61,664 nt of DNA, taken from Omnitrophica WOR_2 bacterium RIFOXYA2_FULL_38_17 (GTDB taxonomy: Bacteria > Omnitrophota > Gorgyraeia > Zapsychrales > Zapsychraceae). The notes beneath the pieces are model-generated. The model worked only from the letters and a program-made list of their open reading frames with translations, did no database searches and had not been told where the DNA came from. The stretch spans positions 4,306 through 65,969 of the forward strand of contig MHHG01000018.1 in NCBI GenBank assembly GCA_001805965.1, written 5' to 3'. The first letter of the stretch is position 1. The number at the start of each line of letters is the position of its first letter. Of this stretch, positions 13,562 through 43,505 are shown piece by piece. The translations under genes and the position numbers were made by a program.

Positions 13562-13672
13562 TAAAGTTATTATAAGGGATTTTGATAATTAATCAAATAT
13601 TTGTTTGATAGAGAATAAAACAGTCTTTTGAAAAATCTTTGAATTAACTTTAGAATTATATTAGAAGAAGGT

Positions 13673-16400: not shown

Positions 16401-16694
16401 ATGAGATTAAGAGTTCTTAAGGGTTCAACATCATTGTGGTATCTATATGGCATTGCTTTGTTCTTAGTTTTTATCTTTGTCTTTGAAGGTGTTTTTAATA
16501 TTCCTAAAACAGCTCCCATTTTAAGTTTCGTCATACAGCAGTACTTTATTCAGTTTATAGTATTGGGTGTATTCTTAACGCTACTATACATAAACAACAA
16601 AAACTCAGCGGATATTTCAGATTTAAAGAATACTATTGAGGAACATAATCAATTAATTAGGGAAGATATTGATGTTTTGAAAGGAGAAAAATGA
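16401..16694 (+). CDS. small membrane protein
   Basis: Two or three hydrophobic helices. RBS GGGGGA upstream. Its stop overlaps the next start (ATGA). Confidence 0.45.
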   Translation: MRLRVLKGSTSLWYLYGIALFLVFIFVFEGVFNIPKTAPILSFVIQQYFIQFIVLGVFLTLLYINNKNSADISDLKNTIEEHNQLIREDIDVLKGEK

Positions 16695-20015: not shown

Positions 20016-21079
20016 AACGGATAGCTGGGTTTGTTGTAATTATATTTATTTTATGGACATTGTTGCCTTTTGCATATGCAGACGATAAGGAAGTGTACAA
20101 AGAGGGTATTAAGTATCTTGAAGCTGAAAATAACGACCTTGCTTTTCTTAAATTTAATCATATTGTAGAAATCTATATAAATTCTAAATATAGAGATGAG
20201 GCTTTATTTAGGGTTGGAGAGTATTATTTTAATTCTAAAAACTTTATACAGGCGAAAAGAAGACTTAAAGAGCATAAAGGGTCATATGCCGAGAGTATTT
20301 ATAAGGATAAAGTTGAGGTACTTTTAAAGGAGATTGAGTTGTTTGAATTGAAGAGAGAAGCGGATAAGTTTTACGATAAACGAGCATGGGAGGCAGCGTT
20401 AAGTCTTTATGAAAAAGTGCTTAGCCTCGATAAAGATAATTCTGCTGTACAGAAGAAAATTAATACTTGCAAAAAGAGCAGAGCTTATGAAACGTCCAAG
20501 TTATTAGTGCAAAAAGGTGATGCTTTATTGCAAGAAAAGCAATTTGAGAAAGCTTCAAAATTATATTCTCAGGCATTAAAGGCAGACTCTTCTAATAATT
20601 CTGCAAAAGAGAAGTTGTCTGAATGTGAAGAACGGATTTCTTTGCAAAAAGAGCAGGAAGAGCAGACAAGGGCTTTTATTCTTGAGCAGAAAGAAAAAGG
20701 TCTGGTGGAATATAATGGTAAATGGGTGACGCTTGAAGAGTATATGGAGGAGAAAGAAGCTACTGAAAAGGCTAAAGAGAAACAGTTGGAAGAATATAAA
20801 AAGAGGCGTTATTCAGATAGTACGAATTATGAGGAGATTTGTCTTTATGCAAAAGCGGCAGTTTTGTCAAACCTTAAATCTCCCTCAACAGCTAATTTTA
20901 GTGTTTGTGACAAGAACACAGTAAGTCAAAAAACAATAGGAGAGTATGAAGTTTTTGGATATGTTGATGCTAATAATCCTATGGGTGGACAGATGAGGTC
21001 TGATTGGTATGTTGTTCTGAAAGTAGATTTGTTGAATAAGTATGTTCTAAAAGATATTGATATTAACACATATGAATAA
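20012..21079 (+). CDS. secreted TPR-repeat/coiled-coil protein
   Basis: Signal peptide, TPR-like repeats, E/K-rich coiled coil. ATG 20012 overlaps the nuclease stop (ATGA); the track starts at 20000. Confidence 0.6.
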   Translation: MKRIAGFVVIIFILWTLLPFAYADDKEVYKEGIKYLEAENNDLAFLKFNHIVEIYINSKYRDEALFRVGEYYFNSKNFIQAKRRLKEHKGSYAESIYKDKVEVLLKEIELFELKREADKFYDKRAWEAALSLYEKVLSLDKDNSAVQKKINTCKKSRAYETSKLLVQKGDALLQEKQFEKASKLYSQALKADSSNNSAKEKLSECEERISLQKEQEEQTRAFILEQKEKGLVEYNGKWVTLEEYMEEKEATEKAKEKQLEEYKKRRYSDSTNYEEICLYAKAAVLSNLKSPSTANFSVCDKNTVSQKTIGEYEVFGYVDANNPMGGQMRSDWYVVLKVDLLNKYVLKDIDINTYE

Positions 21080-27714: not shown

Positions 27715-27889
27715 AAATAGTATTGTTTTATCAGAATCAGAGCGTGATTTACTGAAAGAATTGTGCGTAAAGCACGGAGTCTCTACAGCTATGCTTGAAG
27801 ATCTACTCAAAGTAGAAAAAGAATATCAGCTTAAAGAGCGCAGATTTGGTATTTATGAGAAGTTGCGGCAGATAATAGAGGCGTATTGA
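27695..27889 (+). CDS. small helical protein upstream of the DndD-like gene
   Basis: 64-aa ORF with RBS AGGAG 7 nt upstream. Its stop overlaps the start region of the DndD-like gene. Confidence 0.5.
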   Translation: MGFDLSRNSIVLSESERDLLKELCVKHGVSTAMLEDLLKVEKEYQLKERRFGIYEKLRQIIEAY

Positions 27890-29910
27890 TTATGAAATTC
27901 TTAAAATTATTTATTGATAATTATAAAAGCTTCCAAAAACCGGTAGAGATCAATCTGGATATAACAGATGCGGACAAAAATATTGTTCTCATTGGTGGAA
28001 TGAATGGTGCAGGAAAGACAGCGATATTAGAAGCGATTAATATTTGTTTATATGGCGAAAGGAAAGAAAAGCTTTATAAAGCGATCAATCGAAGGGAATT
28101 GGACAAGGGTAACGGAAACATATTGTTTGAGCTGCATATTTTGCTTGATGATGGTGATGTTTTAAAAGTTAAAAGATCGTGGCGGTGTGCTTCCCACGGA
28201 TTGAATAAAATAACTTCCTCAGATTTAGAAGAAAAGCTGGTTTTAGTTCGTAATGAGCAGCGTCTTGCTATTTCAGATCAAGGGGGGTGGCAGGACTTTC
28301 TTGAAAAAACTATTCCTTATGGCATTTCTCAATTTTTCTTTTTTAATGGTGAAAAAATTGAATATATGGCATCTGATGAGGATTCAGAAGGCAGATTGAA
28401 AGAATCCATAGAAGCATTGCTGGGCATTGAGAGAGCCAAGCAATTATTGAGAGATTTAGAAGAACTTAGGAAAGAACAACGCAAAAAACGAAGCGATATT
28501 ACTGATGATGATATTAAGGCGAAGGAGATTCAGCTTGATTCTGATAGAAAGAAGATCGAAGAATGGAAAAAGGAATTAAGTTTTCTTGAAAAAGAATTAA
28601 ATGAGCTAAATGAAAAGGCCAGTGATTTGGAAACGGAGTTTACAAAACGGTTTGGAATCTCTTCTTTCGGGAGCTCTGGATTAAAGCAGGATGAGATTAG
28701 ACTGGTTCAATTGAATTCACGAAAAGCGGAGATAGATAAGGAGATACGCGAATTTTGTACCAATATTCTTCCTTTTAGCCTTTTATCAAATAAATTCTTT
28801 TTGGTTCTTGATCAAATTCAAAAGGAGCGTCAATTTAGACAAGCGAAGCATGGCTTAAAAGCACGTGAGGAGTTAGTAGACCAGCTTATTGAGAAATTGT
28901 ACCAACCCGATTGTGTCGCATGTAATAAACCATTTGACATAAAGAAAAAAGACTATCTGCAAAAAGAGATTTTGAGTGTATTTCAAGAAAATGCGCGTCA
29001 GAAAGAAGAATCGTCGGATGTTGAACCAATTTTGAATTTATCAGAAATGGATGAGCGAAAAATAGAAGCTCAGTTATCTAATGAGCGGGGTGTTGTAAAT
29101 TTGAAAGAATTATTAAATGAGCGGGAATCGGTTATTAAAGAAGTGCAAAAATTAGAGGGGATACTTAAAAAAACATCTGTTGATAATGAAGATAAAGATG
29201 CTTTGAGGGAACTTCAAATTCAGAGGGATGAAATCCAGCAAAATATTGGAAGACGTAAACAGGAAATAAGATATTTGGATGAACGTATCGCAGAGAAAGA
29301 CGCCGCTATTTCTTCGATGGAACGCGAACTAACCACTCTATACGAGAAATACACACAGGACAAGGGTAAGGTTGATATTATTGTTAAAATTGGTTCTGCG
29401 ACAAAAGTATTAACGGAATTTATTGAGCGGCTTCGAGTGAATAAATTGGAAGAACTTAGACAGCATATTTTTACTATGTATCGTATGTTAGCTAGCAAAA
29501 GCGATTTAATTGCTGATATTGTGATTGATCCTTTGACTTATCGGATAAAAATTATTGATAAACATGGGACATCAGTGAACAAACAAAATTTATCTGCTGG
29601 GGAAAAAGAAGTTTTTGCTATTTCATTATTGTGGGGATTAGCGAAAACATCAAAATATAAATTGCCGGTTATTATCGATACTCCGTTGGCTCGATTGGAC
29701 AGCTTGCATAGAGACGCTATTGTTTCTAAATATTTTCCCGAAGCCGGTGAGCAGGTGGTCATTTTATCAACTGATACAGAAGTTGACCAAAATTATTACA
29801 AGCGGCTTGAGCCACATCTTTCAAGGGTTAATAAGTTATTGTTTGACCGATATCGAGAACTAACGACTTTGGAAGAAGGATATTTTTGGGGAGAAAATAA
29901 TGGCAGATAG
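27886..29910 (+). CDS. DndD-like SMC/ABC-type ATPase
   Basis: N-terminal FLKLFIDNYKSF...LIGGMNGAGKTAILEAINICLYGE, a long coiled coil, and C-terminal LSAGEKEVFAISLLWGLAK...PVIIDTPLARLDSLHRD...VVILSTDTEV, closely following the DndD layout. 674 aa. Confidence 0.8.
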   Translation: MIMKFLKLFIDNYKSFQKPVEINLDITDADKNIVLIGGMNGAGKTAILEAINICLYGERKEKLYKAINRRELDKGNGNILFELHILLDDGDVLKVKRSWRCASHGLNKITSSDLEEKLVLVRNEQRLAISDQGGWQDFLEKTIPYGISQFFFFNGEKIEYMASDEDSEGRLKESIEALLGIERAKQLLRDLEELRKEQRKKRSDITDDDIKAKEIQLDSDRKKIEEWKKELSFLEKELNELNEKASDLETEFTKRFGISSFGSSGLKQDEIRLVQLNSRKAEIDKEIREFCTNILPFSLLSNKFFLVLDQIQKERQFRQAKHGLKAREELVDQLIEKLYQPDCVACNKPFDIKKKDYLQKEILSVFQENARQKEESSDVEPILNLSEMDERKIEAQLSNERGVVNLKELLNERESVIKEVQKLEGILKKTSVDNEDKDALRELQIQRDEIQQNIGRRKQEIRYLDERIAEKDAAISSMERELTTLYEKYTQDKGKVDIIVKIGSATKVLTEFIERLRVNKLEELRQHIFTMYRMLASKSDLIADIVIDPLTYRIKIIDKHGTSVNKQNLSAGEKEVFAISLLWGLAKTSKYKLPVIIDTPLARLDSLHRDAIVSKYFPEAGEQVVILSTDTEVDQNYYKRLEPHLSRVNKLLFDRYRELTTLEEGYFWGENNGR

Positions 29911-31423
29911 GATCATTACTTCAGAGATGACTGAAAAAACTTTGAGGAAAATAAGCAATGAAACAGGCATAGAAATATCTTCTTTAGCGAGATTATCTAT
30001 TGCACTATCTATCCGATTTTATAATTATCAGGAGTTACAGTTAAATGATACTAAGGGGCGTGAAATTAGGCGACAGTCTCTTTTTGGTCGAGAAGAACAG
30101 CTATACAAAATTATTTTAAATGTTTTACATAAAAAAGATTTCTCTGATGATGAATTTGTGTCTAATGACTCTGTTGTTAAGAAACATGTTGAACATGGGG
30201 TGCAATTGATGGCTCAAATGTATGAAGAGGTCAATTATGATGCCTCAGAATTATTAGCACGTTTAGGTAGTTTAGTTGAGGATAAAGGTGTTTCTTATGC
30301 ACCTTCAGATGTTCCAAAAATCAATGTTCATGTGGGAACGGATCAATTGACGAAGGATAAGATATTTTTTGAAATAAATAATACTATTCGCCACGCTAAT
30401 TCACATTTGGCTATTATGGGAAAACCTGGTGTTGGTAAGACACAGGTGCTTTTGAAAATACTTGCTGACATAAGGCAGTTATCAAATTACCAGACTAATT
30501 TTATCTTTTTTGATTATAAGGGCGATGTAGCCAGCTCGGGGAAATTTACATCAGCTACAAGAGCGAAGGTCTTTAAGCTTCCTGAGCAAATTCTGCCAAT
30601 AAATCCTTTTATGCTTCCTGATTATACTGAAACGCAGGTTAAGATATCTGCTAAGGAAAAGGCTGAATCATTTGCTTCCATCAATAGACAATTTGGAACG
30701 GTACAGAAGGGAAATTTAACCGAGGCCATAAAAAGGGCTTATGATGCCCGTAATGGATTTGAGAAAAGGTATCCTGATTTTAGTGAAGTGGCTAATATTG
30801 TTCAACAAATGTATGAGGATAATAACAAAAAGCCAGATTCTTTGGTTGAAATATTGAAAGATTTTTCTGAATTTGGTATTTTTTGGGACCATTCTCGTTC
30901 TGATAAATTGATTAATAGAGTTTCTGAAGAAAGTTTTATTGTCGATTTGCATCAGTTGCCGGTCCTAAAAGAGCTTGTTGCATATTTAGTCATAGAAAGG
31001 CTTTACAAAGAGATGGCGTCATTGCCAGATTCTTTGACAAAAGATGGGAACAGATTTATTCGTACAATTTTAGTTATTGATGAGGCGCACAATTATCTAT
31101 CTCAGAAGAATCCATTTTTACAAAGAATAATTCGAGAAGGACGTTCGAAAGGCATTGTTGTCTTTTTCGCTTCGCAGTCTCCGAATGATTATATGCAGGA
31201 CTTCTTTGATTTTCAGGAGTTATTAGAATTTTCAATGATATTTGCATGTGATGGTGTATCGGCAAGTGCAGTTGAACGATTGCTAGGATGTAGCCGCACT
31301 ACAGCAAAAAGTTTACAGCAGATGGTTGCTAAATTAAAGCCATTTCAAGTAATAACAAAAGGCATTTCAGATACTGATGATTATACGGTATTTAAGGGTG
31401 AGGCATTTTATAAGAACTATTGA
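29900..31423 (+). CDS. DndE-like N-terminal domain fused to a HerA/FtsK-type (DUF87-like) P-loop ATPase
   Basis: N-terminal RIITSEMTEKTLRKISNETGIEISSLARLSIALSI...KKHVEHGVQLM resembles DndE. Walker A GKPGVGKTQ, Walker B ILVIDEAHNY, EGRSKGIVVFFASQSP. Overlaps the DndD-like gene by 11 nt. Confidence 0.7.
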   Translation: MADRIITSEMTEKTLRKISNETGIEISSLARLSIALSIRFYNYQELQLNDTKGREIRRQSLFGREEQLYKIILNVLHKKDFSDDEFVSNDSVVKKHVEHGVQLMAQMYEEVNYDASELLARLGSLVEDKGVSYAPSDVPKINVHVGTDQLTKDKIFFEINNTIRHANSHLAIMGKPGVGKTQVLLKILADIRQLSNYQTNFIFFDYKGDVASSGKFTSATRAKVFKLPEQILPINPFMLPDYTETQVKISAKEKAESFASINRQFGTVQKGNLTEAIKRAYDARNGFEKRYPDFSEVANIVQQMYEDNNKKPDSLVEILKDFSEFGIFWDHSRSDKLINRVSEESFIVDLHQLPVLKELVAYLVIERLYKEMASLPDSLTKDGNRFIRTILVIDEAHNYLSQKNPFLQRIIREGRSKGIVVFFASQSPNDYMQDFFDFQELLEFSMIFACDGVSASAVERLLGCSRTTAKSLQQMVAKLKPFQVITKGISDTDDYTVFKGEAFYKNY

Positions 31424-31580: not shown

Positions 31581-32354
31581 ATGGATGATAAATTAGTTAA
31601 TATCTTACAGTTACAGATAGAAAAGTGCGAAATAATATTAAATGAGTATGTAGCAGATAGATCTGATTATTCTCTTTATGTTTTAGAGAATAAGAGTGGT
31701 CAATGGATAACAGAGACAGAAAATTATTTAAAATATGCAATTGAAAACAAGCAATATCAAGAAGAGTTTAAAGAACGCAGAGTATATGATGGAGATGGTT
31801 ATAATAATGCCATAAATTCCGTCGGTACCCTATATGAGAAATTAGGTTATCTAAATTCATTTGTAGAATTATTAAAAGAGGGTTATATATCTAGCAAGCC
31901 TGTTATTCTAAAAAATAATAAGAATTCAAGAGATGTTTTTGTTGCAATGTGGTTTGATGAACAAATGGATGAATTTTATAACTCTGGCATTAAGCCGACG
32001 ATAGAAAAATTAGGATATAATCCATTGAGAGTTGATGAGCATCAGCACAACAATAAAATAGATCTTGAGATTATTTCTCAAATTGAAAAAGCTGCATTCT
32101 TAGTAGCAGATTTAACAGGAGATAGAGGCGGAGTATATTATGAAACAGGTTATGCGAAAGGTTTGGGAATCCAGGTTATTTATTCTGTTAGATGTGATTA
32201 TCATAAGAAAGTACATTTTGATATTGAACATGAAAATTTAATTATTTGGGATAACATAAAGGTATATTCACAAAAATTAGAAAAAAGAGTAAGTGGAACT
32301 TTTGGTGTGTTTAAGAACTCTTACAAAAAAAATGAAATAGATTGGGAAGAATAA
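31581..32354 (+). CDS. nucleoside 2-deoxyribosyltransferase-like (NDT/TIR-like Rossmannoid) domain protein with a helical N-terminal domain
   Basis: C-terminal half VFVAMWFD...AAFLVADLTGDRGGVYYETGYAKGLGIQVIY matches the NDT-like pattern (strand-Gly/Asp loop, D-x-G-x-x-x-E-x-G-y-A). Confidence 0.6.
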   Translation: MDDKLVNILQLQIEKCEIILNEYVADRSDYSLYVLENKSGQWITETENYLKYAIENKQYQEEFKERRVYDGDGYNNAINSVGTLYEKLGYLNSFVELLKEGYISSKPVILKNNKNSRDVFVAMWFDEQMDEFYNSGIKPTIEKLGYNPLRVDEHQHNNKIDLEIISQIEKAAFLVADLTGDRGGVYYETGYAKGLGIQVIYSVRCDYHKKVHFDIEHENLIIWDNIKVYSQKLEKRVSGTFGVFKNSYKKNEIDWEE

Positions 32355-32818
32355 AACTAAAAGAATTCAGAAATAATTAATTTTAAAACTATTTGTGAAT
32401 AATAATTATTTGCTAGGAAGAACGAATATCTTCAATTTCAACAATTATTATCTCCATCGATAAAATGCGTTGCCAATAAAGATAGTACATCTTGGATTAT
32501 GACTAAGATGTCGAGGTTAATATATTCTCTATAATAGTCTATTTTATGGTTTAGAATTTTAATTGTACCTCCTTATTTTTTTAATTTTTCTCATGTATTT
32601 TAAGAAAAAGCTGTTATTATTATATTAGAAACAATCATATTAGAAATGATTGTAAGAAGCATAGAAGTAAAACAACTATAGAATTGTGATTAATAGAACT
32701 TGAAGGGAGTTTATCTTCAAGTCAATAGGGAAAATCACAAGTGTTGAATAAACGCAGGATAACTGTGGAAAAACACTTGGGATTTTCCCTTTTTTTATGC
32801 TCAAGAAAGGAGCTAAAG

Positions 32819-34084
32819 ATGAAAATAGAGGTTATTTCGATAAATAAGTTAAAACCGGCAGTATATAATCCCCGAGTTTCATTAAAACCGGGTGACAAAG
32901 ATTACGAAAAGTTAAAAAACAGTATCGCCACGTTTGGTTATGTAGAGCCAATTGTATGGAATCGCAAAACGGGAAATGTTGTGGGAGGGCATCAGCGGGC
33001 TGAAGTTCTTAAGCAAGAAGGGTATGAGGAAGTGGAAGTTGTTGTTGTCGAGCTTTCACTTGATAAAGAAAAATCGTTAAATCTTGCTTTAAATAAGATC
33101 AGCGGAAGGTGGGATGAAGAAAAATTATCGTTATTGCTCAGTGAATTAACCCGAATTCCTGATTTTGATGTTGGGCTAACGGGTTTTGAGATGCCTGAAA
33201 TTACAAATCTTTTTGACAAATTTAATGAAAAACAAGATGATGATTTTGATTTTTCTTCTGAGTTAAATAACATTGAAACGCCAGTTACTCAAAAAGGAGA
33301 ACTCATTGAACTCGGGTCCCACCGATTGCTTTGTGGCGATTCATCGAAAGAAGAGGATATAAAAAGATTATTATCCGGACAGAAAGTTAGGCTTATCCAT
33401 ACCGACCCACCTTATAATGTGAATTATTATGGAGGAAACCGCCCAACGCCTAAAGCCCGGCCAAAGAACTCTCGTCATTGGGAGAGGATATACTCAGATG
33501 ACATGACGCAAGAACAATATGAACAATGGTTAAAGAATATCCTGTCTAATACAAAGGAAGTTCTGCAAGAAGGGGCTCCATTTTATATATGGAATGGACA
33601 TAAACAGTTTGGTCCGATGCATCAGATGTTGACTGCACTGGATCTTCATGTTGCTTGTGTTATTACATGGGCTAAACCTAATTTTGCTATTGGCTATGGG
33701 GATTATAATCAGCAGACAGAGTTTTGTCTTTACGGATGGAAGAAAGGTAATGCACATTTTTGGAACGGTCCAACCAATGAATCTACTCTTTGGGAAATTC
33801 ATCGGGACTCGACAAAACAATATATCCATCCAACCCAGAAACCCATTGCCTTGGCACAAAGAGCAATGAGAAATAGTTCGCAACATGGAGATGTTGTTTT
33901 TGATCTGTTTCTGGGATCGGGATCGACCTTGATTGCTGCTGAAAGTCTGGGGCGCCGCTGTTTTGGAATAGAAATCGATCCGAAATATTGTGATGCTATT
34001 GTGAGGAGATATATATCTTTTGTTGGGATAGATAAGGTTTCAGGTGACTTGAGAAAGAAATTCATCAAGGAGGTGAAGTTATGA
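32819..34084 (+). CDS. ParB-like nuclease domain fused to an N4/N6 DNA methyltransferase (beta class)
   Basis: ParB-N segment LKPAVYNPR...VVGGHQR; DPPY motif IHTDPPYNVNY; SAM motif FDLFLGSGST. ATG 32819 follows AAAGGAG; the track starts at GTG 32741. Confidence 0.85.
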   Translation: MKIEVISINKLKPAVYNPRVSLKPGDKDYEKLKNSIATFGYVEPIVWNRKTGNVVGGHQRAEVLKQEGYEEVEVVVVELSLDKEKSLNLALNKISGRWDEEKLSLLLSELTRIPDFDVGLTGFEMPEITNLFDKFNEKQDDDFDFSSELNNIETPVTQKGELIELGSHRLLCGDSSKEEDIKRLLSGQKVRLIHTDPPYNVNYYGGNRPTPKARPKNSRHWERIYSDDMTQEQYEQWLKNILSNTKEVLQEGAPFYIWNGHKQFGPMHQMLTALDLHVACVITWAKPNFAIGYGDYNQQTEFCLYGWKKGNAHFWNGPTNESTLWEIHRDSTKQYIHPTQKPIALAQRAMRNSSQHGDVVFDLFLGSGSTLIAAESLGRRCFGIEIDPKYCDAIVRRYISFVGIDKVSGDLRKKFIKEVKL

Positions 34085-34752
34085 CAAAATATTCATTAAC
34101 TTCGAAGAAGGAAGAATTCCCAGTATTAGTCATTATTCAACATATTAAAGATGGTCGGCTTGATCCAAAAACCATAAATAAAGATCTAAGACAGCAGTGT
34201 GTTGAGGTTTTATTGCTGGAGGGGTATGGTGTTTCTTCTTTGGCGCAGATCTTTATTAGAAGTGACAAGACTATAAGGCGGGACATAGAAGAGATCAGAG
34301 AGAGAAATGCTATCTCGCCTAAAGCGGATTTGGCAAGAAAGATAATAGGGGAAATGGTTGTAAACGCACGTAATCACCAGGGCTATTTAATGCGATTAGC
34401 CCGATCTCAGGGCGCTTCTGTGAGTGAAAAGGGACAATGTGAGTATTTAGCTGCATTGGTATTATTTCAGAACGTTTCCAAACTTCAGTCTCTTGGGTAT
34501 TTGCCTTCACAACCAAAAACAGTTGTGGGTGAACTATTCCATTATTATGAGGAAGATCGAAAGAGTATCCCTGAATATAAGAAGATAATCAAGGATTTAG
34601 AGTTAACAGCTAAAAAAACAGGGAGTCTTACACCTGAAGTGGCAAAAGAGATCAGACAACTGAAACAGCAAGTTAATGAAGCTGATATTCATGAAAAAGT
34701 GAATAGTTTGACTGAAAGAAACAAAATAAAAAAAACTAGACTAAAAAGTTAA
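34081..34752 (+). CDS. HTH protein in the small-terminase position
   Basis: HTH-like GYGVSSLAQIFIRSDKTIRRDIEEI. Located directly upstream of the large terminase-like gene. The start overlaps the methyltransferase stop. Confidence 0.4.
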   Translation: MTKYSLTSKKEEFPVLVIIQHIKDGRLDPKTINKDLRQQCVEVLLLEGYGVSSLAQIFIRSDKTIRRDIEEIRERNAISPKADLARKIIGEMVVNARNHQGYLMRLARSQGASVSEKGQCEYLAALVLFQNVSKLQSLGYLPSQPKTVVGELFHYYEEDRKSIPEYKKIIKDLELTAKKTGSLTPEVAKEIRQLKQQVNEADIHEKVNSLTERNKIKKTRLKS

Positions 34753-34773
34753 AAAGAAAAGAGGAGAAGCTAC

Positions 34774-36399
34774 ATGAAGGATAAAATTGAAAAAAGAATT
34801 AGTGCTACAAGAAGAATCGCCGGAAGAAATTTCGCATTTTTCCGCAAAGAATACTTTTCGCATTACTGTGATATTCCTGATTCTGTGTTTCATGAAGAAC
34901 TTTCTCATGATCTTTCGAAAATGACATTAAAAAGAAGTGTGAAATTTGCACTTGCGGCCCCTCGTGATAGTGGAAAAAGTACAATTATCAGTGCTATTTA
35001 TGTGATTTACTGTATTTGTTATAAGCTTGAGGATTTTATAGTGATAATTTCCAATACAAGTGAGCAGGCAGCTAGTTTTTTATGTGATATAAAAAAAGAG
35101 TTTGAAATGAATGAAAAACTAATAAGTGATTTTCCTGATGTCTGTGAGAAAGGAAAACCACCCAGATGGTCTCGGCGGGAAATAGTTACGCGCAATGGAG
35201 TGAAGGTTTTGGCTTTAGGTTCAAATCAGCAGATTAGGGGAAGACGTAATAAATCCTTCAGGCCTTCACTTATCATTCTAGATGATGTGGAAACAGATGA
35301 AAGTGCAAAAAATCCGGAGAGTTACCATAAACTTGAAGATTGGATTACAAAGGCAGTTTTAAAAGCGGGGACATCTGAAACGAATGTGATTTTTGTAGGA
35401 ACTATTCACCATTATGGATCATTGCTGGCTCAGTTTACGTCAGACAAGTCACATCCTGGATGGAGTAAGGGTATTTATCGTTCTATAATTTCTTATTCTA
35501 GTTCTCCTGATTTATGGCAAAGATGGATACAAATCTTTAATTATCAAGAATTTTATAAAGATCAGGAAGGGCCGGATGCTGCGAGATTGTTTTTCGAAGA
35601 CAATCAGAAAGGAATGCTGATGGGAACGGAAGTTTTGTGGCCTGAAAAGAGAGGTTATTATGATCTCATGGTCATGAGAGAGGAAGATGGGTATCTGAGT
35701 TTTGATAGTGAAATGCAAAATGACCCGGTTAACCCAAGAGATTGCTTGTTTAATTTAGATGAAATGCATTACTGGGATGATAAATTTGCATCTGAAGAAG
35801 AGCTGATAGCATCTTTTGCGAATGATACTATATGGTATGGATCTTGTGATCCAAGTATGGGGAAACATAGAAATAAGGGGGATTTTTCAGCTATTATTAC
35901 AATAGTTAAGAATAGAATAACAGGAACAATATATGTAATTAGTGCAGATATTGCCAGAAGAGACCCTGATAAAATTATCAATGATGTTCTCATGCATCAC
36001 AGAATTCGACAATACAAAGAATTCTCTTTTGAATCTAACAATTTTCAGGAATATCTTTCGTCACAATTGATGAAAAGATCACAAGAAGAGGGCATATATC
36101 TTCCATTAAAAGAAATCAAACATACTTCTGATAAAACGGAAAGAATTATGTGGTTACAGCTGTTCTTGAAAAAAGGAACGATACAACTTTCCAGAAAGCA
36201 TCATACGCTTCTTGAACAGATGAAGTTTTTTCCAAAAGGAAAATATGATGATGGACTTGATGCCTTGGAAATGGTTTTTCATCTTTGTTACAATAACGGG
36301 AGTAACAGTTTAGAAATCTTTGAGAGACAATTAAAAAATATGCGTCTTTCAAAATCAAGAAATGAAATAATGAAACGTAATAGGCTTTTGGTTTATTAA
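34774..36399 (+). CDS. phage terminase large subunit-like ATPase/nuclease
   Basis: Walker A ALAAPRDSGKST, Walker B LIILDDVETDE, IRGRR arginine finger region, VGTIHH, and a C-terminal RNaseH-like part GSCDPSMGK...DGLDALEM. Confidence 0.75.
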   Translation: MKDKIEKRISATRRIAGRNFAFFRKEYFSHYCDIPDSVFHEELSHDLSKMTLKRSVKFALAAPRDSGKSTIISAIYVIYCICYKLEDFIVIISNTSEQAASFLCDIKKEFEMNEKLISDFPDVCEKGKPPRWSRREIVTRNGVKVLALGSNQQIRGRRNKSFRPSLIILDDVETDESAKNPESYHKLEDWITKAVLKAGTSETNVIFVGTIHHYGSLLAQFTSDKSHPGWSKGIYRSIISYSSSPDLWQRWIQIFNYQEFYKDQEGPDAARLFFEDNQKGMLMGTEVLWPEKRGYYDLMVMREEDGYLSFDSEMQNDPVNPRDCLFNLDEMHYWDDKFASEEELIASFANDTIWYGSCDPSMGKHRNKGDFSAIITIVKNRITGTIYVISADIARRDPDKIINDVLMHHRIRQYKEFSFESNNFQEYLSSQLMKRSQEEGIYLPLKEIKHTSDKTERIMWLQLFLKKGTIQLSRKHHTLLEQMKFFPKGKYDDGLDALEMVFHLCYNNGSNSLEIFERQLKNMRLSKSRNEIMKRNRLLVY

Positions 36400-36520
36400 G
36401 GGAAGGTATTTCAGGTGAGGTGCTGAATTAAAATTGACATGTTTGTTTGGGAGGATTAGAATATTTCTATTGATTGAATAGTCCCGAGTTTGAAGGGGGC
36501 AACCCGGACGTTAAAAAAGT

Positions 36521-36566
36521 AAAACCTTCGCTTGGCAGGATTGTGCTCAGCGGAGGTTTTTTATTT
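36521..36566 (+). terminator. rho-independent terminator after the terminase-like gene
   Basis: AAAACCTTCGC ... GCGGAGGTTTT stem (one G-U pair) followed by a T-rich run. Confidence 0.5.
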
Positions 36567-36621
36567 AAAAAGAAGGAAAAAATGAGAAAAATACTGGAAA
36601 CTTTTATAGGGGAGAGTTAAT

Positions 36622-37617
36622 GTGAGCGTTATTGCTGGAAGTTCTCTTTTTCAAGGCGTGATATTGCTGGCTGACTCTAGAGTAACTATACGCAGGCTTG
36701 GACGGAAAGATGTTTATTGTGATAATGCACAAAAATTATTTCCGTTATCTCCTAACTCTGTGCTTGGTTTTGTTGGAGATCTTAAAACTGCTGCTCCCTT
36801 AATTCGAGAGCTATTGAGGCAAATAGAGCAGAAGTATAAACAAGGCCATGCAAAAAGAGTTCATCCACTTTCATTATTACGATGGTTACCTCGTTATTTT
36901 AGATCTGCGTATAAATATTTATCTAAGAAATGGGATGTTGGGCGTGTGGATTTTATGATAGGGTCGGTTATTCCTGAAAAAAACAACGTTATTGAAAGAG
37001 TCAAAGTTGTTGAAATTATGGAAAGATTTAGACTTGGAAAACTTTCTGCACAGCGAAATTGGTTGCCTGGCATACTTATAAAAATATTAAAGATGCCTGT
37101 TGATAAGAAGTATATTGTTTTATCAGATGTGCCAGCAAATCTGCTTTATTATATGCAATCTCCCAAATTTGTGCCCAGTTTTTTAGCACCATTAGAATAT
37201 GCGGCAATAGGTTCAGGTGATAAAGTTATAATGGATATTGATAGAAATGCTGATTGGATTTTTGCGGGTGAAGTTGGTAATTCTTTTCAGGAATCTATGG
37301 CCCTGCGTGAAACAGTCAGTTCATTTATTGAAAAAAATTCTATAATTTCTGTTGGAGGGTTGTATCCTGCAATCAAAATATATAAGGATCACATAGATTA
37401 TTTATGCTATAGCATGCAAATACCTGCAGGTGGTTCCACATTCGAATTAAGTATAAATAAAGATCGACGATGGATACAAAAAAACAAGTTGACTGGTAAA
37501 GAAATTAAATTGCTATTTCCATGGGAAATAGATCCAAATGAATATCATCATGATGAAAGATTTGATGATCTTAAAGATGCATTAAGTAGAACGAAAATAC
37601 GGACTATAAAAAAGTAA
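36622..37617 (+). CDS. proteasome beta/HslV-like Ntn hydrolase homologue with a predicted Ser1 nucleophile and C-terminal extension
   Basis: GTG start after AGGGGAGAG. (M)SVIAGSS...GVILLADSRVT...DNAQKLFPL...GFVGDLKTA...AAIGSGDKV parallels TTIAG...GVVLAADTRAT...K33...G-x-aG-D...AIGSGS of proteasome beta subunits. Confidence 0.55.
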   Translation: MSVIAGSSLFQGVILLADSRVTIRRLGRKDVYCDNAQKLFPLSPNSVLGFVGDLKTAAPLIRELLRQIEQKYKQGHAKRVHPLSLLRWLPRYFRSAYKYLSKKWDVGRVDFMIGSVIPEKNNVIERVKVVEIMERFRLGKLSAQRNWLPGILIKILKMPVDKKYIVLSDVPANLLYYMQSPKFVPSFLAPLEYAAIGSGDKVIMDIDRNADWIFAGEVGNSFQESMALRETVSSFIEKNSIISVGGLYPAIKIYKDHIDYLCYSMQIPAGGSTFELSINKDRRWIQKNKLTGKEIKLLFPWEIDPNEYHHDERFDDLKDALSRTKIRTIKK

Positions 37618-37684: not shown

Positions 37685-38680
37685 ATGAAAAAAAATGATA
37701 CTGTTATGCGCAAATTATTGTTGGATTGTGTGAAAAAATGGTCTAATAACATCAGGGTTCGTTTTCCCGATTCAATAATATTCAGGCTTGTTGGGACTGA
37801 TTTTGCAGAGATTGAGATGATTATTGGCAGAAACAGAAACAATAAACCGAGTGTAACAGCTAATATGCAGAGCGATGCCTCAGCTTTTGAGGGATGGGCT
37901 TTGGTCTTGAAGGCGAGTATAGTGGAATTAAAGAAACTTACTTTGACTTGGGATGAGCCTTTGGACAAGAACGACAAACATTATCAACGATTTCTTTATC
38001 GCGTTGAGAAATTTTCTGTCATATTTCAATCATGGTTTTATGTTGGGCAGTCATATCGTAAAGCATTGAGAATAAAGCTGGGAAGCAAATATAAAGTAAA
38101 TGTTCCCATAAAAAAGCGCGATCAAAGTTATTTGAAAAGTACAGCGGATAATGAGCGAAAACTTGAACAGCAGATGATTAATGATTCTGTATGTCGGCAA
38201 TGGTTGAAGGAAAAAGTTGGTGGCTCAATGATTGGTAATCAGTTGCCTGTTGGTGTCTTTGATGGAAATGTTGCCAAGGGCAATGCGATCTTTACCGGAC
38301 AAGCCAGTGCCATTGATCTATGGGGTGTTAATGAAGAGGGGGATGAACTTAGCATTTTTGAACTCAAATTGCCAAGTAATAAGAAGGTCGGGATTGTTTC
38401 TGAGTTGTTTTTTTACTCTATGGTTATGGGAGATATTATTAATGGCCGTTTTTCATTTGAGGGTAAACGATGTATGGAAGTTGATCCTTGGCCACCAGAT
38501 TACATTAGAGTAGGAAAAATTAAAAAAATTAAAGCATTTATTTTAACGACTGCAACACATTGTTTAATAAATGATAATGTTTTAAAGATTTTGAATGATG
38601 CTTTGAGCCCCAAATTTGTATTCCTCAGGAGTGATCCAAGTGAGTGCAGTTTGCATATAAAGAATAAGGAGGCATTGTGA
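37685..38680 (+). CDS. PD-(D/E)xK nuclease-fold protein (C-terminal half), unknown N-terminal domain
   Basis: ERKLEQQ...ASAIDLWGVNEEGDELSIFELKLPSNKKVGIVSELFFY fits the E...D...ExK restriction-endonuclease-like core. Confidence 0.5.
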   Translation: MKKNDTVMRKLLLDCVKKWSNNIRVRFPDSIIFRLVGTDFAEIEMIIGRNRNNKPSVTANMQSDASAFEGWALVLKASIVELKKLTLTWDEPLDKNDKHYQRFLYRVEKFSVIFQSWFYVGQSYRKALRIKLGSKYKVNVPIKKRDQSYLKSTADNERKLEQQMINDSVCRQWLKEKVGGSMIGNQLPVGVFDGNVAKGNAIFTGQASAIDLWGVNEEGDELSIFELKLPSNKKVGIVSELFFYSMVMGDIINGRFSFEGKRCMEVDPWPPDYIRVGKIKKIKAFILTTATHCLINDNVLKILNDALSPKFVFLRSDPSECSLHIKNKEAL

Positions 38681-39978
38681 AGGTTATTATTCATCGCGGC
38701 ACAAAAGAGATCGGCGGAAGCTGTGTTGAGTTAAAGACGGATAAGACTAGGATTCTGATCGATTTTGGAATGCCATTGGTAGATGTTAACCAAGAACCAT
38801 TTGATTCAAAAAGCATCTTAGGTAAAACCATCGAAGAACTCAAAAAACTTAAAATATTGCCTGATATTAAGGGGCTTTATAAAGACGAAGAAAAAAACAT
38901 TGATGCTGTTCTTATTTCTCATGCCCATTTGGATCACTATGGATTACTTAAGTATGTTAATCCGAATATTCCGATTTATATGAGCGAGGGGGCAAAGCAA
39001 ATGATCGAGGCTTCAGATGTTTTTATTCCTAACAAAGTTGGAAAAATTAACTCACGAGTTATAGCTAAATATCAAAAGACTGCGATTGGCGATCTTGAAG
39101 TGACTCCGTATTTGGTTGATCACTCAGCGTTTGATGCTTTGGCTTTTTTGATTGAGGCTGAAGAGAAAAAGTTATTTTATTCTGGAGATTTCCGTGCGCA
39201 TGGAAGAAAAAGCGTTTTGTTTGAGAAGATAATTTCCGATCCACCGCGAAATATTGACGTTCTTTTAATGGAAGGATCAATGTTGGGGAGGGGTGAGCAG
39301 ATTTATAAGGATGAGACAGCTGTTGAAGAAGTGATAGAAGGTATTTTGAGACAAAAAAAGAATATTGCCTTTTTATTTGCCTCTTCCCAAAATATTGACC
39401 GTCTTGTTTCGGCGTATAGAGCTTGTCTTAGAACAGATTCGATATTTGTGATTGATATTTATACGGCTTTTGTCTTGAATGAAATTGGTAACATATCTAC
39501 AAGAATACCTCAATTTAGTTGGAAGAACATACGTGTTAAATATTTTAAATCCCATGCCGACAGTTTGGCAGAAACTGATCACAAAGAACTCTTATATATT
39601 TTTAATAAGAAAAAGATTGAATTAGAAGAGATATCTGAAAAAAGAAGAAAAATCCTTATGCTTATGCGGCATAATTCACTTTTTCCGGTAGTTATTAAGA
39701 AGATTGATAATATTAAGGAAGCTGTGATTATATATTCCATGTGGCAGGGGTATTTGACGCATGAGTTTGAAGAATATTGTAGGAAAAAGGAGATTGAAAT
39801 AAAACAAGTCCACACGAGCGGGCATGCAACAATTGAAGCTTTGAAAGCTTTTTCAGATGCGATAAATCCAAAGACTTTAATTCCTATTCATACTTTCAAT
39901 AAGAATGAGTATTTGTCTTTGTTTAAGAATGTTACGGTGCTTAATGATGGTGAGAGTTTTGTTTTAAGGGATAATTAG
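38677..39978 (+). CDS. metallo-beta-lactamase fold hydrolase, beta-CASP-like nuclease
   Basis: EIGGSCVELKTDKTRILIDFG; LISHAHLDHYG (HxHxDH); late VHTSGHAT motif. GTG start overlaps the upstream stop (GTGA) and follows AAGGAGG. Confidence 0.75.
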   Translation: MKVIIHRGTKEIGGSCVELKTDKTRILIDFGMPLVDVNQEPFDSKSILGKTIEELKKLKILPDIKGLYKDEEKNIDAVLISHAHLDHYGLLKYVNPNIPIYMSEGAKQMIEASDVFIPNKVGKINSRVIAKYQKTAIGDLEVTPYLVDHSAFDALAFLIEAEEKKLFYSGDFRAHGRKSVLFEKIISDPPRNIDVLLMEGSMLGRGEQIYKDETAVEEVIEGILRQKKNIAFLFASSQNIDRLVSAYRACLRTDSIFVIDIYTAFVLNEIGNISTRIPQFSWKNIRVKYFKSHADSLAETDHKELLYIFNKKKIELEEISEKRRKILMLMRHNSLFPVVIKKIDNIKEAVIIYSMWQGYLTHEFEEYCRKKEIEIKQVHTSGHATIEALKAFSDAINPKTLIPIHTFNKNEYLSLFKNVTVLNDGESFVLRDN

Positions 39979-40014: not shown

Positions 40015-40161
40015 ATGAAGAGAATGATCAAACTTTGCAAAGATTGTGGGTACAAAGAGGAAGTGAAGATTTATTCTCGGGAAGAGATTCAAAGATTGAA
40101 TCTAAGGCCAGGTAATCCTTGTTGTAAAAAGTGTGGAAGCCTAAAAGTGGAGTTAAAATGA
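40015..40161 (+). CDS. 48-aa zinc-ribbon protein (absent from the ORF track)
   Basis: ATG 40015 follows AGGGGAGGA. MKRMIKLCKDCGYKEEVKIYSREEIQRLNLRPGNPCCKKCGSLKVELK has two CxxC pairs. Its stop overlaps the next ATG (ATGA). Confidence 0.55.
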   Translation: MKRMIKLCKDCGYKEEVKIYSREEIQRLNLRPGNPCCKKCGSLKVELK

Positions 40162-41282
40162 AAGCACGTGTTTTTGTAAGTTCAATTATGGAAGGATTCT
40201 CCGAATTTAGATCTACTGCAAGAGAAGCGATTGCAAGGAGTGGTGGATTGCCCATATTGGTTGAAGATTATCCAAGTGTTTCAGTTTCTCCAAGAAATGC
40301 CTGCTTAGATGGTGTTCATAGTAGTGATTTCTTGGTTATTATTATTGGATTAAGAGGAGGATTTATAGCACCATCTGGCAAGATTGTGATTGAAGAGGAG
40401 TATGAGGAAGCTTTGCGGAAGAGAATACCAGTGTTAGTTTTTGTGCAGGAAGGTGATCGCGATGAATATGCTCAGAAATTTGTTGATAAAGTCAGCGATT
40501 ACGTAGATGGATATTTCAGAAATACTTTCTCTGATTCAGATGAATTAGGTGAGGGAATTGAGAAATCACTAAAACCGTTAACAGAAGGCTGGACAAATAT
40601 GGAATATGATACATCTGTAATTGACAATAAAATAGAAGAGTCATTTCAAATAAACAATGAAACATCGTTAAGGTTTGTGATAATGCCGACTCGTAAGGGA
40701 GAAATAGTTGATGCTGTTGATTTAGATACGGAAGATTTTAAGCGAATGATTTATGATATAGCACATAAACGTGGAATTGATTTGTTCTCTTATGAAGAAG
40801 CAAAAGAAGATCCGGATGTCGCAGTTGATCATGTTATCTATTTTCAAAAATCACAAAATAGACAAAAGGGTACTGATATTGTGCGCTTGGAGATTTCGAC
40901 CAATGGATTAATTGTTATTGATCTGAACGTGACGGGTAGGGAGAAGGAAAATTGTGTTACGTCATCTTTATTCAGTGCTGTTATACATGTAGATGCATTG
41001 GCTCTTTGTTTGAGAAAAAGTTTTGGATTTTGTTCTCAAATTTTTGAAGAAAAGGATGCTTATAAGAGATTTGATCCATTGGCATACAATGTTTGTCTTA
41101 ACGATATAGGTTATAAACAGATTGTTAATCAGTATCCCCAAGGGAGTGTGTCAATGGGGATGGGTGGAAACAATAAAGAGAAGTCATTTGATAAACCAAG
41201 AATTATTTCTAGAAGTGACCTTGCGAAACCTGACAGAGAAGTTGAGGCTGTAATTTCGATGTTAAAGAGGAGGATGAAATAA
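40158..41282 (+). CDS. DUF4062-like N-terminal domain protein with an uncharacterised C-terminal domain
   Basis: ARVFVSSIMEGFSEFRSTAREAIARSGGLPILVE...DFLVIIIGLRGG...IEEEYEEALRKRIPVLVFV matches the DUF4062 pattern. ATG 40158 is preferred over the track's GTG 40131. Confidence 0.6.
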   Translation: MKARVFVSSIMEGFSEFRSTAREAIARSGGLPILVEDYPSVSVSPRNACLDGVHSSDFLVIIIGLRGGFIAPSGKIVIEEEYEEALRKRIPVLVFVQEGDRDEYAQKFVDKVSDYVDGYFRNTFSDSDELGEGIEKSLKPLTEGWTNMEYDTSVIDNKIEESFQINNETSLRFVIMPTRKGEIVDAVDLDTEDFKRMIYDIAHKRGIDLFSYEEAKEDPDVAVDHVIYFQKSQNRQKGTDIVRLEISTNGLIVIDLNVTGREKENCVTSSLFSAVIHVDALALCLRKSFGFCSQIFEEKDAYKRFDPLAYNVCLNDIGYKQIVNQYPQGSVSMGMGGNNKEKSFDKPRIISRSDLAKPDREVEAVISMLKRRMK

Positions 41283-41356
41283 TAGGTTAAGAGATAAATA
41301 TGGAGAAATCGGGTTTTGAAAAAAATAAAGGCCTTTGTTTAAAGGAGGGATATGAA

Positions 41357-42640
41357 ATGTCTCAAAATTATTGTCCTTTGTGTAAGCAGGAAGTAACTCA
41401 AGAGCTTTATGAAAAAATAACTGGTGTTTGGCAAGAAAAAGAAAAGAAATTGGCTGATTTGAAAATAAAGGAAAAACAGTTATTGCAGCGAGAAAAGAAG
41501 ATGCAAGCAAAGTTTGAAGTTGAGAAAAAGAAGATTGTAGACCAAGAAAAATCAAAACTTAAGCAACAACTTGCTATTCAGCAAGAATCTTTTCAGAAAA
41601 TATTACTGAAAGAAAGGGAGTCAATAAAAAAAGAAAAGGAGGCTATTTTAAAGACGTTTGAGAAGAAGCTTGCAACTGAAACTAACAAGATATTAAAGCA
41701 GGAGAAGGCTAGGCAAAAAGAACTTGAAAAAACTTTAAAAGAAAAATTTGAACTTGCGGCTCAAGCATCAATGGAAAAAGAGAAGAAAAAATTGCAAAAG
41801 GACAAAAATGATTTACAAAAACGTGAAAATGTACAAATGGACAAATATAGAAAATTAAATCAACAATATGTATCGCTACAGACTAAAAGTGGGGTAGCTT
41901 TAGAAAAAGCTGATAAGAAGATAAAATTGCTTGAGGAACAAATAAAGAAAAATCAGACTCCCCAAGTTTTAGGTCTTCTTGAAGAAGGTGTTTTTCTTGA
42001 AAAGCTTCAAGAGATGTTTCCTGGAGATACATTTGAGCATCCAGGAAAAGGAGGAGATATAATTCAGCATGTTCTTGATAAAGAAAAGGAAGTGGGTGTT
42101 ATTGTTTATGAATTAAAGAAGGTATCAACGTTTAATAAAAGTCATATAATCCAAACGTTTGAGGCTAAACAGCAACGAAACGCAGATTATGGGATTCTTG
42201 TTACTAATGCAAAGCGCTCTAAAGATGACTTTGGCTTCTCTGTCTCCAAGGGAGTGATTATAATTCATCCATCAGGGGCTTTGGTATTAATAAGTATTAT
42301 CAGAGACCATATTGTTCGAATTTCAAAATTAAAATTGAGTACTGAGAAGCGAAAACAAACAATTCAAGCGGTATTAGAATATATTCAGGGGCCATCATTC
42401 CGTAATAGCATTGAAACTATTATGGAAGACACTAAAGAATTGTATGTTAGTTTGACTAAGGAAGTTAAAGATCATTTAAAGATATGGGAACTAAGAGTAA
42501 ATAAGTATAGGAATGTATATAGTGGGGCATACAGCATTGAAACAAATGTTGTTAATTTGTTGTCGGATGACACTGAAAAGAAAGCTCTGCCAAGAGTAGA
42601 GGTGATTGAGTCAATTGCTTTACCATCTAAGATTGATTAA
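41357..42640 (+). CDS. DUF2130-like protein: zinc ribbon, long coiled coil, and a C-terminal PD-(D/E)xK-like domain
   Basis: MSQNYCPLCKQ; about 200 aa of K/E-rich coiled coil; PGKGGDIIQHV...VGVIVYELKKVSTFNKSH...ADYGILVT. ATG 41357 follows AAGGAGGG. Confidence 0.6.
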   Translation: MSQNYCPLCKQEVTQELYEKITGVWQEKEKKLADLKIKEKQLLQREKKMQAKFEVEKKKIVDQEKSKLKQQLAIQQESFQKILLKERESIKKEKEAILKTFEKKLATETNKILKQEKARQKELEKTLKEKFELAAQASMEKEKKKLQKDKNDLQKRENVQMDKYRKLNQQYVSLQTKSGVALEKADKKIKLLEEQIKKNQTPQVLGLLEEGVFLEKLQEMFPGDTFEHPGKGGDIIQHVLDKEKEVGVIVYELKKVSTFNKSHIIQTFEAKQQRNADYGILVTNAKRSKDDFGFSVSKGVIIIHPSGALVLISIIRDHIVRISKLKLSTEKRKQTIQAVLEYIQGPSFRNSIETIMEDTKELYVSLTKEVKDHLKIWELRVNKYRNVYSGAYSIETNVVNLLSDDTEKKALPRVEVIESIALPSKID

Positions 42641-42929
42641 GTGTAAAGACGTAATGTTTTGCAGTAATGAAGATATTATAATTAGAGAGATAAAATTAGG
42701 GGATGTCTTTTAATTGTAGTGATCTGGGTAGTATGCATTATTGGGACTGTTTTTCCTTCTTTGGGTTTATTATTTATTATATTGGCAATTCCCTGGATTT
42801 TTAATAAGAAGTCTAATAAAGAAGCTGATGATTATTATCGCCGCAGAAGACATTATTTTAGAAAGCATCATGGTTTTTAAGATTTAATCGTTAAATTAGA
42901 AGTTTTTATATTTAAAGGGAGGTATACTC

Positions 42930-43505
42930 ATGAGAAAAATTTGGGTAATTTCACCATATGGAAAGAAATCGGAAATATATGGGCACGAAACTTATTCGAA
43001 GGATCGCAAAGATAAGGGGTTTAATGCAGTTTGGCAATATGATTTACAGAATGGCACTATAGCATTGGGGGGCAGTTTTATTGGCAACCCGGAGGGTAAG
43101 TCAGAAGATGTGATTAAAAGAGAAATAATGAATTCTCGAGGGTTTTCTTCTGTTAGTGCAGCTCACTATGCTAAAGATCATTGGAGATTTTATAATGAAA
43201 TAAAAGAAGGTGATATCGTTATAGCAAAAAAAGGTATCAGTGTTATATTGGGTTTTGGTAAGGTGGTTAAAAGGAAGAGGAAAATCAGATTTTATTCAGA
43301 AGAAAAAGGACTTGAAAGGACTGGGAATAAATACAATCCTCACTCTAATTTTTTGAATGTAGATTGGATAGGAAAAGGAATAGAATTTGATGAGCGAGTT
43401 TTTAGAATTGGCAGGTTCAAACCGTTAAACGAAATGTTAATAAAAAGTAAATATTCTAAGTATGCTCCTATAATTATGGACAGTATTAAACAATATTTTG
43501 GTTAA
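42930..43505 (+). CDS. hypothetical protein, possibly with a PUA/EVE-like beta-barrel
   Basis: RBS AGGGAGG. The pattern IWVISP...W...GTIALG...IKEGDIVIAKKG...ILGFGKV is reminiscent of EVE/PUA-like readers. This is a weak call. Confidence 0.4.
   Translation: MRKIWVISPYGKKSEIYGHETYSKDRKDKGFNAVWQYDLQNGTIALGGSFIGNPEGKSEDVIKREIMNSRGFSSVSAAHYAKDHWRFYNEIKEGDIVIAKKGISVILGFGKVVKRKRKIRFYSEEKGLERTGNKYNPHSNFLNVDWIGKGIEFDERVFRIGRFKPLNEMLIKSKYSKYAPIIMDSIKQYFG

Follow-up and report, generated by a model that had tools for sequence, protein, structure and literature searches.

We analysed a 61,664-nucleotide stretch of contig MHHG01000018.1 from Omnitrophica WOR_2 bacterium RIFOXYA2_FULL_38_17 (hereafter the window) and focused on one gene within it, at 36622..37617 on the + strand. 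The gene is an open reading frame (ORF) with a GTG start and a stop codon at 37615-37617, and encodes a proteasome-like N-terminal nucleophile (Ntn) hydrolase of 331 aa. The encoded protein, here called the Ntn protein, is homologous to the proteasome-like family (PF00227, Ntn-hydrolase clan). By its sequence it is a highly diverged, stand-alone relative of the proteasome beta subunit with a predicted complete active site. A Shine-Dalgarno-like GGGGAGAG (36609..36616, + strand), read from the sequence, lies 5 nt ahead of the GTG start. The start call of the 331-aa ORF is right, because its MSVIAG N-terminus agrees with the starts of nearly all homologues: MS or MT forms the N-terminus in 92 of 115 full-length relatives and is followed by V/I-V/I-A-G, while the remaining 23 are mostly visibly truncated gene calls.

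An AlphaFold2 model of the protein was built on 23 of 30 unnamed relatives, which are mostly metagenomic and share 38–67% identity. It has a predicted local distance difference test (pLDDT) score of 89.4 and a predicted template modelling (pTM) score of 0.89. A Foldseek search with this model against the PDB yields 401 matches at E ≤ 1e-3 (best E 4e-7); the top 50 are all 20S proteasome subunits, and the target-normalised TM-scores reach 0.75. The model thus has the alpha-beta-beta-alpha Ntn sandwich of the proteasome/HslV type that a preliminary description, made from the letters of this stretch, had anticipated. We also searched the PDB with a profile of 89 family sequences that are 23–67% identical to the window protein (profile A2). 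This profile matches 132 sequences at E ≤ 1 (best E 3.4e-5), and the matches listed, 60 of the 132, are all proteasome alpha, beta or HslV chains. In these alignments, residue 1 of the mature beta subunit pairs with residue 2 of the Ntn protein. Archaeal alpha subunits are matched as well as beta subunits, and the match to HslV (E 0.0037) is weaker than those to either type of proteasome subunit. The Pfam family Proteasome (PF00227) is matched by 44 of the 89 relatives with a best E of 1.4e-11, and longer sister proteins exceed its gathering score. Since fold and sequence both support it, homology to the proteasome-like family is established.

The active-site positions were compared across the family, with conservation counted over the 89 relatives unless stated otherwise; all codons given below are on the + strand. 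The predicted N-terminal nucleophile is Ser2 (codon 36625..36627), which aligns to Thr1 of beta subunits. Of the 89 sequences, 54 have Ser and 35 have Thr here, always directly after Met, and no other residue occurs at this position, as expected for the propeptide-free serine nucleophile that the preliminary description had proposed. Asp18-Ser19-Arg20 (36673..36681) contains the equivalents of proteasome Asp/Glu17 and Arg19, and both D18 and R20 are present in 89/89. Lys38 (36733..36735), part of a QKLF motif, is Lys in 88/89 and corresponds to proteasome Lys33 and to Lys-37 of the BPH proteins. The GFVGD motif, with Gly49-Phe-Val-Gly52 encoded at 36766..36777 (G49 78/89, G52 85/89), covers the region of the oxyanion-hole residue Gly47 and was aligned to AGLVGD and AGFAGG of reference proteasome-like sequences. 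Further along, Gly197-Ser198-Gly199 (37210..37218), within AAIGSGDKV, represents the GSG block with Ser129; G197 is found in 89/89 and G199 in 87/89, and position 198 is occupied by Ser in 77 relatives and by Thr in 6. Ser243-Val-Gly-Gly246 (37348..37359) follows helix H4. Its first position is Ser in 36 and Thr in 36 relatives, and V244, G245 and G246 are conserved in 82, 89 and 87 of 89, respectively. We propose, from its position in the fold and not from an alignment, that this SVGG loop is the Ser169-Gly-Gly loop of the proteasome. Asp34 is also invariant across the relatives and has no counterpart among the canonical catalytic residues.

Direct hhalign comparisons with reference sequences give the same pairing. 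S2, D18, R20 and K38 pair with T1, E17, R19 and K33 of the Thermoplasma beta subunit (E 2.9e-5), and D17 and K33 of Escherichia coli HslV pair with D18 and K38. Ser and Thr replace each other freely at the first mature position while the rest of the set is fixed, which is the pattern of a catalytic nucleophile. All motifs aligned by eye in the preliminary description (MSVIAG, LLADSRVT, a Lys, GFVGD and AAIGSGDKV) are present in the protein and conserved in its relatives, and the Asp and Lys partners named there are invariant or nearly so.

Methionine aminopeptidase prefers small residues after Met, and Ser is permitted. From this specificity, Ser2 would be exposed by removal of the initiator Met. 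A precedent for Ser at this position exists, as BPH proteins outside Betaproteobacteria carry Ser-1 (PMC5777263). The best-supported reading of the conserved residues is an active, partner-less Ser/Thr Ntn amide hydrolase, with an active-site chemistry that would resemble that of proteasome beta subunits, BPH or HslV. In such a mechanism, methionine aminopeptidase would take off the initiator Met, and Ser2 would become the N-terminal nucleophile. Its hydroxyl would be deprotonated by Lys38, with Asp18 orienting and Arg20 supporting this Lys; Gly49 would provide the oxyanion hole, and the N-terminus would be braced by Ser198 and the Ser243-Val-Gly-Gly loop. An amide (peptide) bond would then be cleaved via an acyl-enzyme intermediate.

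Since profile A2 matches archaeal alpha as well as beta subunits, the protein could in principle be a catalytically dead scaffold that keeps the fold in the way alpha subunits do. We consider this hardly credible. Throughout the 89 sequences there is little or no variation at the nucleophile, Asp, Arg, Lys and GSG positions, and the nucleophile directly follows Met, whereas alpha subunits have an N-terminal extension.

With 331 aa, the subunit is considerably longer than beta subunits (about 200 aa), and the extra length noticed in the preliminary description is real, consisting of an insertion and a C-terminal extension. In the AlphaFold2 model, helices H1 (residues 54–73) and H2 (82–103) are followed by a strand (109–125), two helices (126–137 and 150–156) and a second strand (164–179). 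The two strands are unusually long, and we read this arrangement in the model as about 50 residues inserted into the turn of the hairpin after H2. From predicted secondary structure and conservation, the family-specific insertion spans about residues 119–170 (36976..37131, + strand; boundaries approximate), and it has no counterpart in beta subunits of about 200 aa. Among closer relatives, its motif NVIER..ERFRLGKLS.QRNWLP is the most conserved stretch of the protein; among 23 close relatives, N122, R145 and P149 do not vary, and R126 and W147 are each kept in at least 90%. The insertion positions are gapped in some distant relatives, and the motif is absent or different in the most distant ones. 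The C-terminal extension (about residues 270–331; 37429..37614, + strand) contains strands 272–278, 284–288 and 294–296 and a terminal helix (316–330). It carries a PWE motif in which P300 is present in 89/89 and W301 and E302 are conserved. Substrate choice and assembly would probably be set by the insertion and the C-terminal extension.

For proteasome homologues, five insertion sites are described by Fuchs et al., who also point out that additions of this kind may not be compatible with ring formation (PMC8665760). The insertion of the Ntn protein, placed after the first strand that follows H2, matches none of these five sites. By analogy, its size may likewise be incompatible with assembly into a ring. 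Extensions of other kinds occur among the relatives: in a sister clade, P0163, P0164 and P0167 (575–592 aa) have an N-terminal proteasome-like domain that passes PF00227, fused to a C-terminal DUF6941, and the relatives P0168 and P0169 (445–464 aa) carry different extensions again.

To place the protein among known systems, we compared it with each of the characterised proteasome-type families. With 20S beta subunits it shares the alpha-beta-beta-alpha sandwich, the N-terminal Ser/Thr, Asp17, Arg19, Lys33, Gly47 and the GSG block with Ser129. It differs from them in that its gene comes without an alpha-subunit partner, a propeptide or an Mpa/ARC/PAN unfoldase. The hallmarks of a bacterial 20S proteasome (a paired alpha gene, a propeptide and an Mpa/ARC and Pup context) are lacking at the loci examined. 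The N-terminal motifs of HslV (ADxR, the K in xKL, GFxG and GSG) align with those of the Ntn protein, but the latter is about twice the size (331 versus about 175 aa), has the insertion, and has no HslU gene adjacent or co-occurring. No AAA+ unfoldase adjoins the Ntn gene in the window or its relatives in 15 related loci, which extends the earlier remark that an ATPase partner is missing here. BPH resembles the Ntn protein in having no propeptide, no known unfoldase, Ser-1 and a Lys at mature position 37; BPH is compact, however, and forms heptameric double rings with an acidic pore loop (PMC5777263), whereas the Ntn protein has large additions. BPH is not among the 60 PDB matches listed for profile A2.

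Fuchs, Alva and Lupas (2021) described 22 uncharacterised proteasome-like subfamilies, for example PHD, PMI-1 to PMI-6 and WPH (PMC8665760). Compared by description only, these share with the Ntn family a bacterial and sparse occurrence, the lack of a propeptide and of an AAA+ partner, an intact triad, and insertions or extensions. The similarity of the Ntn protein to both alpha and beta subunits resembles the ‘group II’ of that survey (PMC8665760). For the 2021 subfamilies no informative genomic context is reported (PMC8665760), whereas the Ntn family recurs in defence islands (see below). An exhaustive profile search for the Ntn family retrieved 579 clusters at 50% identity with E ≤ 1e-3, 123 of them with E ≤ 1e-30; all cluster members are named ‘hypothetical protein’, and no accession of the 2021 subfamilies is found among them.

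Archaeal connectase is the closest parallel in one respect, being a solitary, diverged proteasome homologue whose insertion possibly controls substrate access (PMC7980362). It occurs in methanogens only, is devoid of H1 and H2, and has a two-helix insertion between S3 and S4 (PMC7980362). The Ntn protein, in contrast, is bacterial and keeps both H1 (54–73) and H2 (82–103), and its S3/S4 hairpin is only about 4 residues longer than that of beta subunits. We rejected identification as HslV (no HslU), as a bacterial 20S subunit (no alpha gene, propeptide or Mpa) and as connectase (H1 and H2 kept). A more general form of the connectase comparison would hold that the Ntn protein is not degradative at all, acting as a sequence-specific transpeptidase or ligase, or as an amidase on a non-protein substrate. 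Connectase shows that a diverged, partner-less proteasome homologue can act as a ligase (PMC7980362, PMC8665760), the large conserved insertion could gate the active site, and the invariant D34 falls outside the canonical catalytic set. Against this stand the retention of H1 and H2, the different location of the insertion and the lack of a conserved substrate gene near any of the 15 loci; we regard a ligase or amidase as quite unlikely.

The distribution of the family is sparse. Of 185,579 species-representative genomes, only 10 contain a relative, among them Nitrospirae, Clostridiales, Bradyrhizobium, Rhodospirillales, Syntrophaceae, Scalindua and Terriglobia. An all-against-all BLAST of the neighbours at 15 distinct loci with a relative revealed no conserved partner gene. 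In two genomes the gene has decayed, as is typical of accessory genes. In a Nitrospirae metagenome-assembled genome, a frameshift splits the copy into two ORFs, in the NCBI (L005) as well as the Logan (L006) assembly (L-numbers denote loci that carry Ntn relatives; L005/L006/L009, about 10001-10979 in L005 coordinates), and at L007 an IS110 element is inserted into the relative itself (8239-10645). This scattered and decaying distribution fits a horizontally moving accessory gene.

At about half of the loci (a raw count), the relative adjoins genes for restriction-modification (R-M), AbiL, TIR, Lit or type IV restriction. At L023, 7 bp separate the relative from the hsdS gene upstream, where a type I R-M operon ends, and a type I R-M system also adjoins the relative at L007. 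An AbiL pair lies directly upstream at L011. At L005 a type IV restriction enzyme is encoded directly upstream, and a Schlafen/AlbA_2 protein and a type ISP enzyme are encoded downstream. A ThsB-like TIR protein is encoded near the relative at L010, and HEPN and Lit-like genes are found nearby at L001, with the Lit-like gene three genes away. As with Lit-like single-protein defence genes, the family consists of a lone predicted protease gene in defence islands. Lit, however, is a metalloprotease that uses zinc and whose target and trigger are known, whereas the fold of the Ntn protein is unrelated to it and no PADLOC model represents the Ntn protein.

Ordinary neighbours at three loci (L015, L016 and L018) raise the question of whether the protein has a housekeeping function, as an ATP-independent, ring-forming protease (self-compartmentalising, in the term of the preliminary description) that, like BPH or Anbu, clears unfolded or damaged polypeptides. 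The common fold with all four flanking helices H1 to H4 kept in the model, and the lack of a propeptide or unfoldase as in BPH (PMC5777263), agree with this view. A housekeeping enzyme would, however, hardly be confined to 10 species genomes in scattered phyla, sit in islands beside defence genes and terminases, and be a pseudogene in two genomes. Furthermore, the C-terminal extension and the insertion of about 50 residues belong to the sort of additions that Fuchs et al. regard as a possible obstacle to rings (PMC8665760). We therefore consider a housekeeping protease unlikely.

Directly downstream of the Ntn gene, at 37685-39978 on the + strand, two genes with a 4-bp overlap encode a 331-aa PD-(D/E)xK-like protein and a 433-aa beta-CASP metallo-beta-lactamase (RNase J-like). 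In the first protein, D211, E226 and K228 are invariant (D...ExK motif); its model is confident and has a weak fold match to the Can2, Card1 and Cdn1 nucleases (E about 0.03). Both genes are thus of predicted nuclease type and on the same strand as the Ntn gene, as the preliminary description had stated. The pair has no PADLOC match and may be an uncharacterised nuclease pair. A three-gene operon, in which the Ntn gene would come first and act with the two nucleases in a protease-plus-nuclease defence, is suggested by the common strand, the gap of 68 bp and the fact that no terminator was detected between the Ntn gene and the pair. None of the 15 related loci has these neighbours, though, and in other genomes the pair reappears behind unrelated genes without an Ntn gene beside it, which marks it as a separate module. 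A direct comparison of the two genes with the neighbours at L007 also gave no match. The functional link to the downstream nucleases suggested earlier is hence not borne out, and we consider a three-gene operon very improbable, even more so than the phage-derived origin discussed below.

Upstream of the Ntn gene, a promoter-like site TTGACA-17-TAGAAT (36434..36462, + strand) lies 160 nt from the start; it has 11/12 consensus matches, is a consensus match only, and the number of such sites in the scanned region equals the shuffle expectation. Between this site and the gene, the centroid structure contains a strong hairpin followed by a T-run (36522..36568, + strand), which may be a terminator of the upstream terminase operon, a leader element, an attenuator or a chance structure. 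A 12-codon upstream ORF (36582-36620, + strand) has its stop one base before the GTG start. No conservation of the hairpin or the 12-codon ORF was found upstream of homologues. Two deltaproteobacterial homologues (L015 and L017) have a common leader of their own, GTTAGCCACAAAAA...CAATGGAGAA.ATGAATTAATG, about 40 nt upstream of the gene; this leader holds a 5-codon upstream ORF whose stop overlaps the start codon.

The Ntn gene is situated in a region of low GC content, which falls from about 0.41 to 0.31–0.37 over roughly 12–46 kb of the window and thereby indicates an integrated island. At 8705-14953 we find tRNA-Val, tRNA-Asp, a gene for a large serine recombinase together with a DUF2924 gene (both on the - strand), a helix-turn-helix (HTH)-cupin regulator and an IS110 transposase. 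The order is that of the two tRNAs, then the large serine recombinase, and then, a few kb on, the low-GC stretch. A search against Rfam found only the two tRNAs, and no direct repeat of at least 14 nt was found between 8.6–13 kb and 42–52 kb. The cargo includes the IS110 element and a type I R-M system, and the same island is present in GCA_003500255.1. A conserved protein encoded in the flank shows 76% identity to Omnitrophota genomes, in line with the assignment of the contig. The surroundings can be confirmed as a defence-type island, that is, a low-GC integrated stretch with many defence-type genes.

Several gene groups of the island are oriented like the Ntn gene, on the + strand. A same-strand cluster at 16691-21079 encodes an M48 peptidase with TPR repeats, a staphylococcal-nuclease-like protein, a TPR protein and two unknown proteins; downstream of the homologue at L001, U49/M48-like, TPR and SNase genes are found as in this cluster. 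At 27886-31423, a gene for an SMC-like AAA ATPase (674 aa) overlaps one for a 507-aa fusion of DndE with a HerA/FtsK-type ATPase (PADLOC DndH, E 1e-37). Together they resemble a defence module with two ATPases, either related to Dnd/Ssp or novel. Gene calls on identical contigs include a small Sp-DndD-like ORF just upstream. At 31581-32354, a protein of 257 aa is encoded whose C-terminal domain is TIR-like or nucleoside 2-deoxyribosyltransferase-like (PADLOC TIR effector, E 3.9e-13; phrog_16139, E 1.7e-37). Beyond the nuclease pair, a same-strand run at 40131-43505 encodes DUF4062 (383 aa), DUF2130 with a long coiled-coil N-terminus (446 aa) and DUF8426 (191 aa) proteins.

Immediately ahead of the Ntn gene, at 32741-36399 (+ strand), lie genes for a ParB_N and N6/N4 DNA methyltransferase protein, a small HTH protein and a large terminase (phrog_38, E 7e-97). 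In the window, the large terminase gene is not followed by genes for a portal, capsid or tail. The group resembles a phage packaging module orphaned inside the island, as either a remnant or a satellite-like element. Its position bears on a further explanation, namely that the Ntn gene is a phage-derived prophage moron related to PPH and AAH that serves the phage and not the host. The terminase gene is directly upstream, and in Bradyrhizobium (L012) a lambda gpA-type terminase gene adjoins the relative. In addition, residues 1–71 of the window protein weakly match the PHROG ‘peptidase HslV family’ (E 0.0066), and the best match among viral structures (BFVD) is a phage ‘proteasome beta type-2 subunit’. 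Yet no relatives were found in IMG/VR, in 50,697 GenBank phage records (INPHARED) or among PLSDB plasmids, phage structural genes are missing after the terminase in the window, and most loci have no phage genes. We thus judge a phage moron to be very unlikely.

Taken over all loci, the neighbour pattern suggests a role in conflict with phages or mobile elements. The reading we favour, and consider reasonably probable, is that of a stand-alone, sparsely distributed proteasome-like Ntn hydrolase carried as mobile single-gene cargo, which would be a probable conflict-related protease. The gene has landed repeatedly in defence islands and mobile elements, which fits horizontal movement. On infection, the protease would cleave either a phage protein or a target in the host; alternatively, it would modulate an immune system encoded nearby. 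This role is the weakest step of the proposal. A narrower version, which we put forward only tentatively, holds that the gene is a single-gene immune module built on a proteasome fold. It would be triggered by infection or act on phage proteins, or it would control neighbouring restriction, for example by degrading HsdR-type subunits once an R-M island reaches a new host. Relatives recur immediately behind type I R-M, type IV restriction and AbiL genes, a position that is compatible with this version.

Several observations weigh against a conflict-related protease of the proteasome type. Searched alone, the window protein has no Pfam, NCBIfam or PADLOC match (cut-off E ≤ 0.01 for Pfam and PADLOC), and a single-sequence search of the PDB with it gave no significant match. 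In proteasomes, Ser-1 reportedly performs less efficiently than Thr-1 (PMC5777263). About a third of the loci (L015, L016 and L018) have the plain housekeeping neighbours mentioned above, and at L014 the neighbours are unrecognisable. The defence role is circumstantial: it is drawn from association, and residence in islands is common for any accessory gene. The literature searched contains no link between a proteasome homologue and phage defence, and no experimental characterisation of the subfamilies from the 2021 survey.

To our knowledge, bacterial proteasome homologues beyond HslV and the actinobacterial 20S proteasome have no known function. The family described here offers a concrete handle on this group, as it combines a predicted complete active site with recurrence beside restriction and abortive-infection genes. 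Because no propeptide or partner would be needed, the single gene can be expressed and assayed. The conserved insertion of the closer relatives probably defines the substrate. If the Ntn protein is not an immune protein, it would provide a clean model for proteasome-like subunits that work outside rings and without unfoldases. If it is an immune protease, the proteasome fold would be linked to prokaryotic antiviral defence, and a new class of protease would be added to prokaryotic immunity. Should the gene prove to be an immune module, this would be the first functional role for any ‘orphan’ bacterial proteasome homologue.

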